From the NCBI RefSeq assembly GCF_017348835.2, contig NZ_CP072317.1: a DNA stretch of 64,000 nt; one strand, 5' to 3'. The translations under genes were made by a program, and so were the position numbers. Under the pieces are notes generated by a model that saw only the letters and a program-made list of their open reading frames with translations, did not search any database and had not been told where the DNA came from. Shown one piece after another: positions 40,261-47,232 of the stretch (positions are counted from its first letter, which is position 1; every line of letters begins with the position of its first letter). This DNA is from Escherichia coli (GTDB lineage Bacteria > Pseudomonadota > Gammaproteobacteria > Enterobacterales > Enterobacteriaceae).

Positions 40261-40824
40261 TCAGGCACGCAAACGAATAATCATCGTCGGGACATCGGTA
40301 TAAGCAAACGTGCCGCGCGGCAGCTCCTCGCGGACGTCAGAAAACGGTAACAGCTTCTCCTGCTGGCGTGGCCCGTTGAGACAGACGGCAACCAGAACGC
40401 CCCCCGGACGCAACAGGGAAAAAGCCCGCAGGATATGCCGGATATCCTGCCCGTGACTGAACGGCGGATTCATAATGATCCGGCTGTAATACTGCACCGA
40501 CTGCCATTCCATGAAGTCGCCACACTGTACCCTGACACCGTTAAAATTTTCCCGCAGATACCGGACCAGCCCGCTGTTAATCTCCACCGCATCACACATG
40601 GCCTCCGGCGCGGTATCCCGAATCGCCCGCAGTATGGCCCCGGTGCCGGCAGAGGGTTCCAGAATGTGATCACGGTTGCTGATTTCCGCCAGCGTCACCA
40701 GGCGATCACAGATCGGGGCAGGACTCACAAAAAGCTGAGATTCAGCCCGGATTTCAGCAACCGGCGCGGCGTTATCCAGCCTTGCGCGCATCAGCCGGAT
40801 ACGTTCTCTTAACTGACTGTGCAT
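40261..40824 (-). CDS. orphan SAM-dependent DNA methyltransferase (NPPF motif)
   Basis: 187-aa ORF with SAM-binding EPSAGTG-like motif and NPPF; no adjacent restriction gene. Confidence 0.65.
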   Translation of the reverse strand: MHSQLRERIRLMRARLDNAAPVAEIRAESQLFVSPAPICDRLVTLAEISNRDHILEPSAGTGAILRAIRDTAPEAMCDAVEINSGLVRYLRENFNGVRVQCGDFMEWQSVQYYSRIIMNPPFSHGQDIRHILRAFSLLRPGGVLVAVCLNGPRQQEKLLPFSDVREELPRGTFAYTDVPTMIIRLRA

Positions 40825-40870
40825 ATCATTATCTCCGTCATCCCCCGGGGATTTCCCGGGGGGATATACC

Positions 40871-42232
40871 TTATTTCTGTGGGATTTCCGTGATTTTCAT
40901 GTCGGTGATATACACATTCACCAGACGGAAATTATTGTCCATTGTGCGGCGGTAGCGGTATGCCCCGTGGTCTTCTGCTTCTTCCACACTGCGCACGGCC
41001 TTACAGTCCCGGGGCAGGGCGGCCCACTGCGCCTTTGTCATTTCCCGGAAACCTTCCCCCGGATAGTTGACTACCGGCGGACGCTTCGCGGCCTGACTGG
41101 CGACGGCAGCCTCTTCTGCCGATGGTGCTTTGTAGTCCGTGATGCGATCGGGCGTCACTTTCATCGTGCCGCTGTACCCGAGAAAACTGTAATTTGGCGT
41201 TGTGACTGAACTCACCGCCCCGTTGCTTTTGTTCACGCGGATGATAGTCAGCCACTCGCCCCGGCTGAAAACCTGTCCGCCCGGCTCAAAATCCTGTGTC
41301 CGGGTAACCACGCCGCCGCTTTCGTCCAGCATGGCACGCTCATAGATCAGGCGGTTCTGATAGTGGTTAACCCAGCGTTGCTGATGCTGAATCTGCCGTT
41401 CATGACAGCGGATCGCAATTTCGCGGGCCTGCTCCGTGGTGATGATGTCATCATCCAGGGCCGACCATAACGACCGGCTCCCTTCATACTGGCTTTTTTC
41501 TGCCGGGCGCGGATACGTATCCAGCGGGAAACAGGCGCTGATATGGTCATGACTGCTGATGAGTTTTGCCATATTCAGATCCAGCGATTCAGCCCGCCAC
41601 ATCGTCAGATATTTCTGCGACTGTGCGATGGTCTTTTCAGCCTTGCGCAAATCAGCTTCGATTTTTTTGATACGACGCCAGCGAACGTCCGGGCGTTCTT
41701 TATACTTCGCGTGAAGCAGTGCCGACCGCGCCCGTTCTTCCCAGTATTCCGCACGTTCAAAGAGCATCACGGCACGTTTCATGCCGTTTTCAATACGCTG
41801 CGCATCACGACGGGCGCGGCGTTCGCTGTGATGCCCCACAAGAATGGGCTGACCGGGCGGGATCATCGCGGCCAGTCTTTCCACTTCATCAAGTGCCTGT
41901 GCGGATTCACTGGCCCGCTTTCCGCTGTATCCGGTAAACCGCTCCGCCCGTGCTTCCTGACGTTCAGCGAGCGTGCTGTCTTCATCCTCAATCTCTCCGG
42001 CAAGTGAGAGGAGCACGTCTTCCCGGCCCGGTGTCCAGGCTGGCGCGACAAACAGCGCCTGTCTGGGTGCCCAGCGGAAACCGGCATCATGCACTTTTTT
42101 ATACGTCTCCGGGTCAAGACGTGACGCGGCATACAGGCGCAGTTTGTTGTCATCCGGTGAGTAGGTCGCGCGGTACATCTGCACAGGGCTGGCGGCTTCC
42201 GGGGCGGTCATGGTGATTGCAGCTAATGTCAT
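40871..42232 (-). CDS. hypothetical leading-region protein (453 aa)
   Basis: Long ORF with good coding continuity between the 76-aa ORF and the methyltransferase. Confidence 0.55.
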   Translation of the reverse strand: MTLAAITMTAPEAASPVQMYRATYSPDDNKLRLYAASRLDPETYKKVHDAGFRWAPRQALFVAPAWTPGREDVLLSLAGEIEDEDSTLAERQEARAERFTGYSGKRASESAQALDEVERLAAMIPPGQPILVGHHSERRARRDAQRIENGMKRAVMLFERAEYWEERARSALLHAKYKERPDVRWRRIKKIEADLRKAEKTIAQSQKYLTMWRAESLDLNMAKLISSHDHISACFPLDTYPRPAEKSQYEGSRSLWSALDDDIITTEQAREIAIRCHERQIQHQQRWVNHYQNRLIYERAMLDESGGVVTRTQDFEPGGQVFSRGEWLTIIRVNKSNGAVSSVTTPNYSFLGYSGTMKVTPDRITDYKAPSAEEAAVASQAAKRPPVVNYPGEGFREMTKAQWAALPRDCKAVRSVEEAEDHGAYRYRRTMDNNFRLVNVYITDMKITEIPQK

Positions 42233-42283
42233 AAAATGTTCTCCTTCCGTCTGTTGCCGCCCCTCGCGGGGCGGCTCACCTCA

Positions 42284-42514
42284 TCAGTTAAAAGCGCGTT
42301 TCAGTTCGAGTGTGCGGAGCACCTGCCCGAAAGCCGTATTTTTCATGGCGGGGATGTGTACACCACGTCCCCGGTGAAAACTCCGGGCAATGTGTCGCCC
42401 GAAGGCTTTCAGCACGGGGTCAATTTCCGGCGCGGGGATGTCTTCGCGTCTGAAACGGGGATGACGGCGGGGCTTTACAGCCGCTGCGGAAGGTGAAACA
42501 ATACTTACCGTCAT
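42284..42514 (-). CDS. hypothetical basic small protein, first ORF 3' of Frpo-like copy 3
   Basis: 76-aa ORF. Confidence 0.4.
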   Translation of the reverse strand: MTVSIVSPSAAAVKPRRHPRFRREDIPAPEIDPVLKAFGRHIARSFHRGRGVHIPAMKNTAFGQVLRTLELKRAFN

Positions 42515-45051: not shown

Positions 45052-45879
45052 TCATTTCCGGATTTTTGCCAGGGCATCCGCCATGCTGCGGATTTCGGCC
45101 CGGGCTTCCCGGACCACCTCCCGCAGAACACCACGGTCAAACCAGCGGCGGGGCGGTTCATCCGGTATACGCAGCACATCGCAGGCCAGCCCACTGGACA
45201 GGATATGCTCAATACAATCGCTGACCAGGTACATTTCCACCGACGAAAAACGTGCTCCCCGGTTCACGATGGCATCGAGCACCACGGGCAGGTTTTCGTC
45301 ATCTTCATCGAGCCAGCAGGGGTGATCGCTTTCCTTCACAACCAGACGAAAGCGGCGCGTCTGGCGAGTCAGCAACGTCTGACCGGTGGTGGTCAGCGCC
45401 GCCCGGATACGCCGCGCATCTTCTGCCACCCGGCAACTGACACTGCGTACCGCATCGCGCACCGCCGCAAGTACAGCCCTGATTTCGTCTTCGGTCAGCC
45501 ATTCTCCGGCATACGGGAAAGACACCTGCGTTCCGTCTGCCGGAAGTACCGGCAGCGACTGCCACTGACTGCCGGACAGTACCAGTTCCGCCCCGGTTCC
45601 GGTCAGTTTCTGAATGGCGGAGGCCAGGAGCGGCGGCAGTACGCCGCCGTGACGGTTGATAAGTAACGTCGCCAGCCGGGGCGCATCCAGCAGAACATAA
45701 ATGCTGATCCAGCCCGGATACTTCGGGTTACGCTGGTCAACATCCGTCTCTTCCGGCCAGCCCTGCGCCAGCAGCAGGTTGCGGGCGTGACGACAAATCA
45801 GTGCGTTCAGCGTGCTGTTTTCGTTCATGATTAAGCGTTCTCCCTGTATCGCCGCCCGCAGGGCAGGCGGCGATAACAT
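45052..45879 (-). CDS. hypothetical leading-region protein (275 aa)
   Basis: ORF abutting the 144-aa ORF. Confidence 0.5.
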
Positions 45880-46313
45880 CAGTCGTTTTCGTGTGTGTTG
45901 TTTTTCAGCAGGGTGCGGGCCTGATTAACCACCTCCTGACGGCGGGTGACGCATTCCGGGACGGCGAGGCCATGATCCCGGGCGGCCCATTCACGTTTCC
46001 ACAATGCCTGTTCAGCGGTCTGAATCAGGGACGCCAGCAGTTCAGCAGGGACGGTCACCAGGCGGTTTTCGCTCTCGTTGCGGATAATCTCCATCACCGC
46101 AGCGGAAGAAATACCGGACTCAATCCGCTGGTCTTCCGGGATGTCCTCCAGGCGTGCCAGGACGGTCCTGATTTCATGACCGGTCAGAGAAATTTCCATA
46201 CCGTCAGCCAGTGCCTGAATCTCTTCCGGGGACCAGATAACCAGCATCAGCGGCATGTCTCCCGGATACTTTACTGCCAGCTCCCGGCATAGCGTTTCGC
46301 ATGTTCCGTACAT
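45879..46313 (-). CDS. hypothetical protein, paralog of 43740..44162
   Basis: 144-aa ORF. Confidence 0.5.
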
Positions 46314-46326
46314 TCTCGTCTCCTTC

Positions 46327-46548
46327 TCAATCTTTAAAGCACGCTTCCAGTTCCAGAATTTCGGTATATGCCTCCATCAGGAGGCGGTTTGCGCGAAACA
46401 GCGTCTGACGCACCAGACGTTCCGGCAGGGTGTCGGCATTAAAGCTGTACCGCTGCTCCATCTCATTCATGGTTGTACGCAGGTCGCACATGGCATTGGC
46501 CACCTCCGCCACTTCGGCGCGCAGTTTTTCGTGTCCTGCATAGTTCAT
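46327..46548 (-). CDS. hypothetical small protein
   Basis: 73-aa ORF abutting the methyltransferase stop. Confidence 0.4.
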   Translation of the reverse strand: MNYAGHEKLRAEVAEVANAMCDLRTTMNEMEQRYSFNADTLPERLVRQTLFRANRLLMEAYTEILELEACFKD

Positions 46549-47232
46549 TTACGCAGCCTCCGGCATAAACCAGTCATCATTCGCGGCCCCCTGCTGCATG
46601 GCCCGTTGCACGGCGGCAAGGCGTTGCTGCCCGGCACGGTGATACTGCTCAAGCAGCTCGATACCGATATACCGGCGTCCGGACTGGAGGGCGGCGACGC
46701 AGGTTGAGCCGCTGCCTGCAAACGGGTCCAGCACAATTGCGTTCGGGTGTGTGAAGCTCTCAATCAGCGGTTGCAGGCTGGTAACGGGCTTTTCCGTCGG
46801 GTGATGGCGATTGCCCGAATATTTCCAGCCCAGCACGTCCGGCAGCGGGTTTTGTGGCAGACGTGGACGGCCTTTTGCCAGGATGTAGGCACATTCGTGG
46901 CGATAGCCCACATATGCGGCCTTCGATGTGTAGTTTTTGGTGAAGACCAGGTGACCAACAACGCTGAATCCCGCATTTTTCCAGGCGGCCATAAAGCGAT
47001 CGACGCGGTTCCAGCCATAGAAGCTCACCATTAACGCGTCTTTTTTGAGTACGCGGTACATTTCATTACAGGCTGGTTGCAGCCATTCATCGGTTTTATC
47101 GCCGGCGATGGTGCGCCCGGAACGGTCACGGAAACCGACGAGATACGGCGGGTCGGTGAGGATGAAATCGACAGCATTGCCCGGAAACGTGGCCATAACA
47201 CGCACGCAGTCACCCAGGATAAAACGGGACAT
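46549..47232 (-). CDS. orphan DNA N6-adenine (or N4-cytosine) methyltransferase, DPPY motif
   Basis: 227-aa ORF with DPPY then FAGSGS; no adjacent restriction endonuclease. Confidence 0.8.
   Translation of the reverse strand: MSRFILGDCVRVMATFPGNAVDFILTDPPYLVGFRDRSGRTIAGDKTDEWLQPACNEMYRVLKKDALMVSFYGWNRVDRFMAAWKNAGFSVVGHLVFTKNYTSKAAYVGYRHECAYILAKGRPRLPQNPLPDVLGWKYSGNRHHPTEKPVTSLQPLIESFTHPNAIVLDPFAGSGSTCVAALQSGRRYIGIELLEQYHRAGQQRLAAVQRAMQQGAANDDWFMPEAA

Follow-up and report, generated by a model that had tools for sequence, protein, structure and literature searches.

Two leading-region DNA methyltransferase genes of an IncF plasmid as probable establishment functions, one of them with a conserved DUF3560 partner

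The window analyzed here, a 64,000-nucleotide (nt) stretch of Escherichia coli DNA (RefSeq assembly GCF_017348835.2, contig NZ_CP072317.1), represents an IncF conjugative plasmid that carries blaCTX-M-3, and it includes two minus-strand genes, at 40261-40824 and 46549-47232, whose predicted products are DNA methyltransferases of 187 and 227 amino acids (aa), respectively. We think it likely that both are establishment (anti-restriction) methyltransferases of the IncF leading region, expressed only as long as the entering strand is single-stranded. Orphan methylases that lie behind single-strand promoters in leading regions are already in the literature, and the finding in this general form is known because it has been published (Samuel & Burstein 2024; Fomenkov 2020; Wen 2025); for the 227-aa gene, both its role and the hairpin promoters are established knowledge to which we add nothing new. 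What goes beyond this concerns the 187-aa protein, which is named YdcA in some records, and its pairing with YdbA, a DUF3560 protein encoded directly upstream. We propose, as a tentative reading that we hold at less than even confidence, that YdbA-YdcA is a two-subunit adenine DNA methyltransferase of an uncharacterized kind, and a split version of a widespread DUF3560-methylase fusion that occurs in phages and conjugative elements.

An earlier note on this DNA, made from the sequence alone, had placed both genes in the leading region, and the position of the transfer origin agrees with this. An oriT nick-region sequence of the R100 type, TTTGCGTAGTGTGTGGTGCTTT, occurs once in the window, at 31793-31814 on the plus strand between traM and the SLT gene; it has two mismatches to the F sequence, and no occurrence is expected by chance. 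We take this to be the nick site of the transferred strand (T-strand), since in F-like oriT regions the sequence as written is that of the transferred strand, of which the portion 3' of the cut is the first to enter the recipient. Because the nick sequence is on the plus strand, the plus strand is the T-strand and the leading region extends upward from 31.8 kb, with the ydcA gene 8.5 to 9.0 kb and the 227-aa gene 14.7 to 15.4 kb from the nick. The plus strand is also the template for both methylase genes and for the other minus-strand genes discussed here. Samuel & Burstein (Nature 2024) report gene families, an orphan methyltransferase family (family 8) among them, that are enriched in leading regions and are always encoded on the T-strand.

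The region from 39400 to 47800 is 100% identical to several IncF plasmids of E. coli, Shigella, and Salmonella, such as pCTXM3_020032, in which the annotation runs from the tra operon (minus strand) through traM, a divergent SLT gene, DUF932, hok, psiB, and DUF905 to ssb, and then, beyond ssb, through both methylase genes and their neighbors to parM. At least 5000 PLSDB records match this region, at least 2679 of them with coverage of 80% or more.

As judged from its sequence, the product of 46549-47232 is an M.EcoGIX orthologue, a beta-class DNA adenine methyltransferase of the M.EcoGIX/YfeA family. The open reading frame (ORF) contains DPPY (residues 27 to 30; 47143-47154) and FAGSGS (residues 171 to 176; 46705-46722), as had been noticed before, with HPTEKP between them, in the motif order of the beta class. 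It matches Pfam N6_N4_Mtase with E = 1.6e-40 and NCBIfam NF010253 with 498.7 bits over residues 1 to 227 (cut-off, 244), and its relatives of solved structure are CcrM, DpnA, and RsrI. The alignment with M.EcoGIX, the sole DNA methylase of pESBL-EA11 (pESBL), is gapless over 227 of 227 residues at 92% identity, and none of the 18 substitutions falls within DPPY, HPTEKP, or FAGSGS. M.EcoGIX is encoded by the pESBL gene at 54782-55465, and YfeA of F is 91% identical to it (Yamaichi 2014; PMC4288162).

Early protective methylation of incoming DNA, which the earlier note had suggested for both genes, is for this one the published function of its homologue. When pESBL lacks M.EcoGIX, transfer into EcoGIII or EcoRI recipients falls by up to ~1000-fold (PMC4288162). 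The enzyme is a promiscuous adenine methylase, specific for single strands, that acts in an SAY context, and the protection it gives is orientation dependent, being abolished when the direction of transfer is inverted (Fomenkov 2020; PMC7736820). It is strongly induced within 15 min of mating, and in F transconjugants the operons of KlcA and of the M.EcoGIX homologue have raised transcripts (Wen 2025; PMC12672017). Enzymes of the M.EcoGIX type form family 8 of Samuel & Burstein 2024, with 3753 members and enrichment in leading regions.

The proposed control of the 227-aa gene is likewise that of its homologue. A class 3 single-stranded DNA (ssDNA) promoter element occupies 47233-47575 (plus strand), directly 5' of the gene, with hairpin arms at 47292-47321 and 47487-47516. 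It is 96% identical to its counterpart in pESBL, 97% identical to that in F, and 83% identical to that in a Serratia plasmid, and it ends at the methylase start codon in each; the hairpin at 47292-47516 folds on the plus strand with -98.8 kcal/mol (z = -6.7 versus shuffles). For the "class 3" hairpin promoter 5' of M.EcoGIX, the transcription start has been mapped in pESBL by 5' rapid amplification of cDNA ends, and the promoter is conserved in F (PMC12672017). We note that a 97-aa hypothetical-protein ORF (47309-47602, minus strand) is annotated inside this element in the reference plasmid; it has no family match in an NCBIfam scan and is probably an annotation artefact.

The behavior of M.EcoGIX in established cells also bears on an alternative, that the methylases are epigenetic regulators of replication, transfer, or expression in the established plasmid and not anti-restriction functions of the entry phase. 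Such a role has precedents in the orphan methylases Dam and CcrM, the latter being, among proteins of solved structure, the nearest to the 227-aa protein, and methylation influences the transfer of some plasmids (PMC11602122). However, no modification at SAY was detectable in established pESBL or in host DNA (PMC7736820), and deletion of M.EcoGIX left plasmid stability and growth unchanged (PMC4288162). Moreover, the structures that precede both window genes are of a kind with promoter activity in single-stranded form only, and the single double-strand sigma-70-like site in 38800-47800 is on the opposite strand. We give a regulatory role very little credence, the least of the alternatives considered here. 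The earlier note had regarded the lack of a plasmid-dependent methylation motif as grounds for rejecting protective methylation, but M.EcoGIX is silent once its plasmid is established, and a negative methylome of an established strain would thus leave the idea standing.

YdcA is most probably an N6-adenine amino-methylase core that acts on DNA. The ORF at 40261-40824 has the NPPF motif previously reported for it at residues 119 to 122 (40459-40470), and this belongs to a series that also includes SP at residues 34 to 35, EPSAGTG (motif I) at 56 to 62, and LPRGTF at 168 to 173. Thus the (S/T)P helix, motif I, NPP(Y/F), and motif VIII of the gamma class are all present, and Iyer et al. describe a TP-capped N-terminal helix together with NPP(Y/F) as diagnostic for EcoKI/TaqI-like DNA adenine methylases in proteins of mobile elements. 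Only 14 residues follow LPRGTF; there is no target-recognition domain in YdcA, and NCBIfam and PADLOC scans find no HsdS-like neighbor. A single-sequence search finds its best match of solved structure in the catalytic half of M.TaqI (chain residues 23 to 164 of 421), and YdcA aligns with residues 91 to 267 of phage P1 DarB at 23% identity, with all four motifs included. A confident AlphaFold2 model (mean predicted local distance difference test [pLDDT] score, 85.8) has a Rossmann methylase fold, with Foldseek matches to M.TaqI, HsdM, PacII, and Dim1. Because the gamma-class core is complete and the gene has the right position and orientation, early protective methylation by YdcA is plausible.

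The breadth of these matches raises the question of the substrate. YdcA could instead be an RNA or protein amino-methyltransferase, similar to Erm/KsgA, RsmC, or HemK, that modifies the host ribosome or a translation component during establishment. The best Pfam match is MTS (30.7 bits, just over the cut-off of 23), a small domain of the RsmC/RlmG type; the top NCBIfam matches are Erm (4.7e-08) and KsgA (3.4e-07); the first Foldseek match is the rRNA dimethylase Dim1; and a PDB profile search ranks MJ0882, KsgA, and HemK level with M.TaqI. However, the Erm and KsgA scores, 32.7 bits (cut-off, 212) and 29.8 bits (cut-off, 171), reflect the Rossmann core only, and matches to DNA-methylase modules are far stronger: the PADLOC mad2 methylase is matched with E = 1.7e-19 (68 bits; Type II methylase models, 4.8e-11), and phage PHROGs of proteins of 1259 to 3431 aa, some labelled DNA methyltransferase, with E values down to 8e-31 (108 bits). 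The (S/T)P helix and LPxGTF are shared with M.TaqI and DarB, as the EcoKI/TaqI-like mark of Iyer et al., and YdcA has no C-terminal RNA-binding domain. We therefore regard an RNA or protein substrate as unlikely, and methylation of DNA as the preferred reading.

YdcA is also associated with YdbA, a 453-aa protein (40871-42232, minus strand) with DUF3560 at residues 89 to 206 (Pfam E = 5e-37). The ydbA gene is directly upstream of ydcA and co-oriented with it, with a 46-nt gap, and ydcA has its own ribosome-binding site (RBS). The adjacency is kept in homologous loci L005, L007, and L008, where YdcA identity falls to 51 to 56%, and the same 46-nt gap is seen in the Serratia plasmid and in a metagenome contig; the DUF3560 protein of Pantoea is split as well. 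We considered and rejected the possibility that the separation of ydbA and ydcA is a frameshift artefact of this plasmid, given the same 46-nt gap in homologues of 51 to 63% identity.

In many distant relatives, the two parts are a single protein. An exhaustive search with YdcA gave 9734 related cluster representatives at E values of 0.001 or better, and among the 113 best representatives with a near-complete methylase domain, 68 (60%) have a YdbA-like region in the same polypeptide as the YdcA-like methylase. These fusions are typically 550 to 730 aa long, consistent with 453 plus 187. Among 10 sampled proteins, Pfam reported a methylase domain (MTS or Methyltransf) after DUF3560 in five, and DUF3560 with no Pfam methylase match in two more. 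One protein (P0265; 669 aa), whose gene adjoins a phage terminase gene, covers the full length of YdbA in alignment (47% identity) and matches YdcA with its own C-terminal part. Another (P0373; 1018 aa; L011 6930-9986) has a DNA polymerase III beta-clamp-like domain before DUF3560 and the YdcA-like methylase domain, an architecture that hints at a tie between this methylase family and replication; we note that its genomic context is phage- or satellite-like and includes a primase gene. Because the two are fused in 60% of the distant homologues, YdbA and YdcA probably act as one enzyme, of which the IncF genes would be the split form.

The same fusions could be read the other way, with YdcA as an inactive remnant, a C-terminal domain cut off from a DUF3560-methylase fusion and now carried as a functionless passenger. 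The fusion does appear ancestral, YdcA has no recognition domain, and F and pESBL manage without the cassette. Nonetheless, the catalytic motifs of YdcA are invariant in 13 homologues down to 51% identity, and the split form, with its 46-nt gap and separate RBS, is conserved in distant Enterobacterales plasmids. The family is also large and enriched in leading regions: from KEGG labels, size, and position, YdcA is probably family 26 (1957 members) of Samuel & Burstein, which adjoins the DUF3560 family 28 (1913 members), listed as uncharacterized. Decay to a passenger is thus highly improbable in our estimate, and an active YdbA-YdcA enzyme remains the reading that we favor. We had also considered whether YdcA is the "putative DNA-methyltransferase, family 14" of Fig. 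1c in the same article, and rejected this because family 14 is DUF1380/YcgC. The accessible part of the article does not analyze the DUF3560-methylase pairing.

These observations modify the description of YdcA as an orphan. The lack of an adjacent restriction endonuclease, which the earlier note had pointed out, holds for both: when every ORF from ssb to parM was scanned with Pfam, NCBIfam, and PADLOC models, the neighbors matched DUF3560, DUF1380 (twice), and the ArdB/KlcA antirestriction protein, and none matched a nuclease or defense protein, so that the cognate endonuclease adjoining the methylase in Type II restriction-modification systems is lacking here. The annotation of the identical plasmid likewise gives only ssb, klcA, parM, and DUF or hypothetical proteins as neighbors. 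For YdcA, the term "orphan" therefore stands with respect to a nuclease, but not in the sense of a solitary gene, since it has a conserved non-nuclease partner in YdbA.

The earlier note had also described both genes as lying downstream of hairpins, and this proves correct in the transcriptional sense: the hairpin at 47292-47516 is 5' of the 227-aa gene, and one at 42825-43012 is 5' of the three-gene unit orf76-ydbA-ydcA, in which ydcA is the third gene. The hairpin nearest ydcA by coordinate (39424-39878), by contrast, is 3' of ydcA and belongs to ssb. A repeat of ~450 nt is present in three leading-region copies (33948-34402, 39424-39878, and 42730-43183), with about 90% mean identity to the region upstream of ssb in F across the aligned copies. 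The copy at 42730-43183 (plus strand), 5' of orf76-ydbA-ydcA, is 93% identical to this Frpo region, and its core at 42825-43012 is a hairpin of ~190 nt with a plus-strand DNA fold of -73.2 kcal/mol (z = -9.1). Homology to F and a long T-strand hairpin mark it as a Frpo-like class 1 element, with predicted promoter activity. The copy at 39424-39878 (plus strand) is also Frpo-like class 1, contains inverted repeats, and lies 5' of ssb and 3' of ydcA. These two copies are 85 to 89% identical and bracket the cassette (39424-43183 span), an arrangement which suggests that recombination between these promoter copies adds or removes the cassette. Simple repeats also adjoin both copies: the spacer that separates the end of ydcA from the Frpo copy of ssb contains a tandem array of 9.5 perfect CAGTAG units (40025-40081), and a degenerate version lies at 43340-43399, beside the other copy.

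The first gene of the unit (42284-42514, minus strand) encodes 76 aa behind a good RBS; its product has no family match in NCBIfam or PADLOC and is hypothetical in the identical plasmid. Overlapping its start on the plus strand is the antisense RNA AS-pc01 (42509-42610; Rfam RF02875, 89.7 bits versus a gathering score of 79). The region 38800-47800 has a single sigma-70-like site, at 42474-42502 (plus strand), and both this site and a terminator-like site at 42584-42607 (plus strand) fit AS-pc01. AS-pc01 would not be made until the plasmid is double-stranded, because its template is the complementary strand, and it may serve as a post-establishment off-switch of the ydbA-ydcA unit.

Taken together, the data are consistent with the following scheme. 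In the recipient, host RNA polymerase would start at the folded hairpins of the entering strand, and expression would stop as the complementary strand is made and the hairpins are ironed out, as described in the literature. By homology, the product of 46549-47232 would place promiscuous N6-methyladenine, in SAY context, on the entering single strand, so that the resulting duplex would gain partial protection from many restriction enzymes, of Type II and of other types. YdbA-YdcA would add a second layer of low-specificity adenine methylation, in which YdbA could supply DNA binding or targeting for YdcA; in the two-subunit reading, DUF3560 would stand in for a conventional recognition domain and might bring the enzyme onto DNA that is single-stranded or replicating. 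Once the plasmid is duplex, AS-pc01 may help to shut down the ydbA-ydcA unit.

Several observations weigh against this scheme. Catalysis by the window enzymes is argued from homology, and M.EcoGIX itself reportedly modifies only about 40% of susceptible sites. For YdcA, Foldseek and the PDB profile search rank Dim1/KsgA, TrmN, MJ0882, and HemK level with M.TaqI, and the Erm/KsgA matches in NCBIfam, weak and sub-threshold as they are, point the same way. The role given to YdbA is a guess: its AlphaFold2 model is poor (pLDDT, 63; predicted template modelling score, 0.33), Foldseek finds nothing below E = 0.2 in the PDB, and a PDB sequence search gives no match. A literature search for ydcA, ydbA, and DUF3560 returned annotations, transcript tables, and CRISPR-spacer matches only, with no functional study and no YdcA activity, and M.EcoGIX has been called "not a potent MTase" (methyltransferase; PMC4288162). 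Finally, there is no Frpo homology 5' of the same gene pair in the Serratia plasmid (L007 3850-4120). In that interval, an AT-rich ACAAAATAGTTGT(T/A)AAC unit is present in several copies in inverted arrangement and may represent a promoter or operator of another kind.

If the two-subunit reading is correct, thousands of IncF resistance plasmids carry, beside M.EcoGIX, a second and mechanistically distinct entry-phase methylation system. The leading-region establishment program helps resistance plasmids to pass restriction barriers between strains and species, and the backbone of the window recurs in thousands of clinical plasmids. In PLSDB, at least ~2,700 plasmids carry the ydbA-ydcA cassette, yet orf76-ydbA-ydcA is absent from the model plasmids F and pESBL, with which almost all experiments have been carried out, and for this reason these two cannot settle what YdbA-YdcA methylates or whether it extends host range. 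Chromosomal CRISPR spacers of Klebsiella pneumoniae are reported to match plasmid S-adenosylmethionine-methyltransferase and DUF3560 genes (PMC6965323), which fits with hosts targeting the ydbA-ydcA cassette.

Between the 227-aa methylase and the orf76-ydbA-ydcA cassette, klcA/ardB (44209-44634, minus strand) is preceded by a class 2 ssDNA-promoter hairpin (44671-44909, plus strand) with 32-nt arms that are 97% complementary (fold z = -6.4), and this element has 95 to 96% identity to F and to the elements found upstream of klcA and ardA in pESBL. Downstream of the 227-aa methylase, 45052-46548 (minus strand) holds genes for a 73-aa YubE-like protein, a DUF1380 protein, and a 258/275-aa YchA/YffA-like protein, in an order that is the same in pESBL, F, and a Serratia plasmid; the YubE-like label derives solely from PF27407 in the equivalent Serratia-plasmid gene. 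Closer to oriT, a ParB-like gene homologous to yfjB of F is interrupted near codon 460, at a site within 37086-37153, by a 50-bp perfect palindrome, CTGATGAATCCCCTAATGATTTTGGTAAAAATCATTAGGGGATTCATCAG (37095-37144), flanked by a 9-bp direct repeat, GGCAGAGCG. We presume that the palindrome represents abutted IS10 ends with a 9-bp target duplication, in which case a "nearly precise excision" of Tn10/IS10 would have left it as a scar. Two ORFs, 37106-38527 and 36504-37079, remain of the gene, which the identical plasmid's protein table does not list.

Among known systems, M.TaqI shares with YdcA the catalytic-domain motifs X, I, and IV and the fold, but has a C-terminal recognition domain of ~180 aa and a cognate nuclease, and YdcA has neither. 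P1 DarB and YdcA have TP, EPSAGTG, N-x-PF, and LP-x-GTF in common, and both are on mobile DNA and linked to anti-restriction. However, DarB has 2255 aa, and in DarB-type dyads of polyvalent proteins the methylase is fused to a C-terminal SWI2/SNF2 helicase (superfamily 2, SF2) and an N-terminal LPD36 domain, whereas YdcA is a single domain of 187 aa without either, and scans with Pfam, NCBIfam, and PADLOC find no helicase among the YdcA neighbors. DarB is also delivered in the capsid, whereas YdcA would be made in the recipient and is partnered with a DUF3560 protein.

For the 227-aa gene the likeness is much closer. M.EcoGIX of pESBL, with YfbB of R64 and YfeA of F, resembles it in length, motif order, and orientation to oriT, and the pESBL locus has the same downstream order of 73-aa protein, DUF1380, YchA-like, and klcA. 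The replicons differ, being IncF here and IncI1 in pESBL, as do the sequences beyond the class 3 hairpin, which are parM/stbA here and DUF1281 with a small ORF in pESBL. Known single-strand promoters include Frpo/ssi, from F and ColIb-P9, and those of classes 2 and 3 in pESBL; the window elements are 83 to 97% identical to those of F and pESBL and have the same gene-relative positions, although F and pESBL lack the extra class 1 copy and the orf76-ydbA-ydcA cassette that it precedes. The overall arrangement, with both genes transcribable from the T-strand in an anti-defense island that includes ssb, psiB, klcA, and Frpo, matches the pattern described by Samuel & Burstein 2024.

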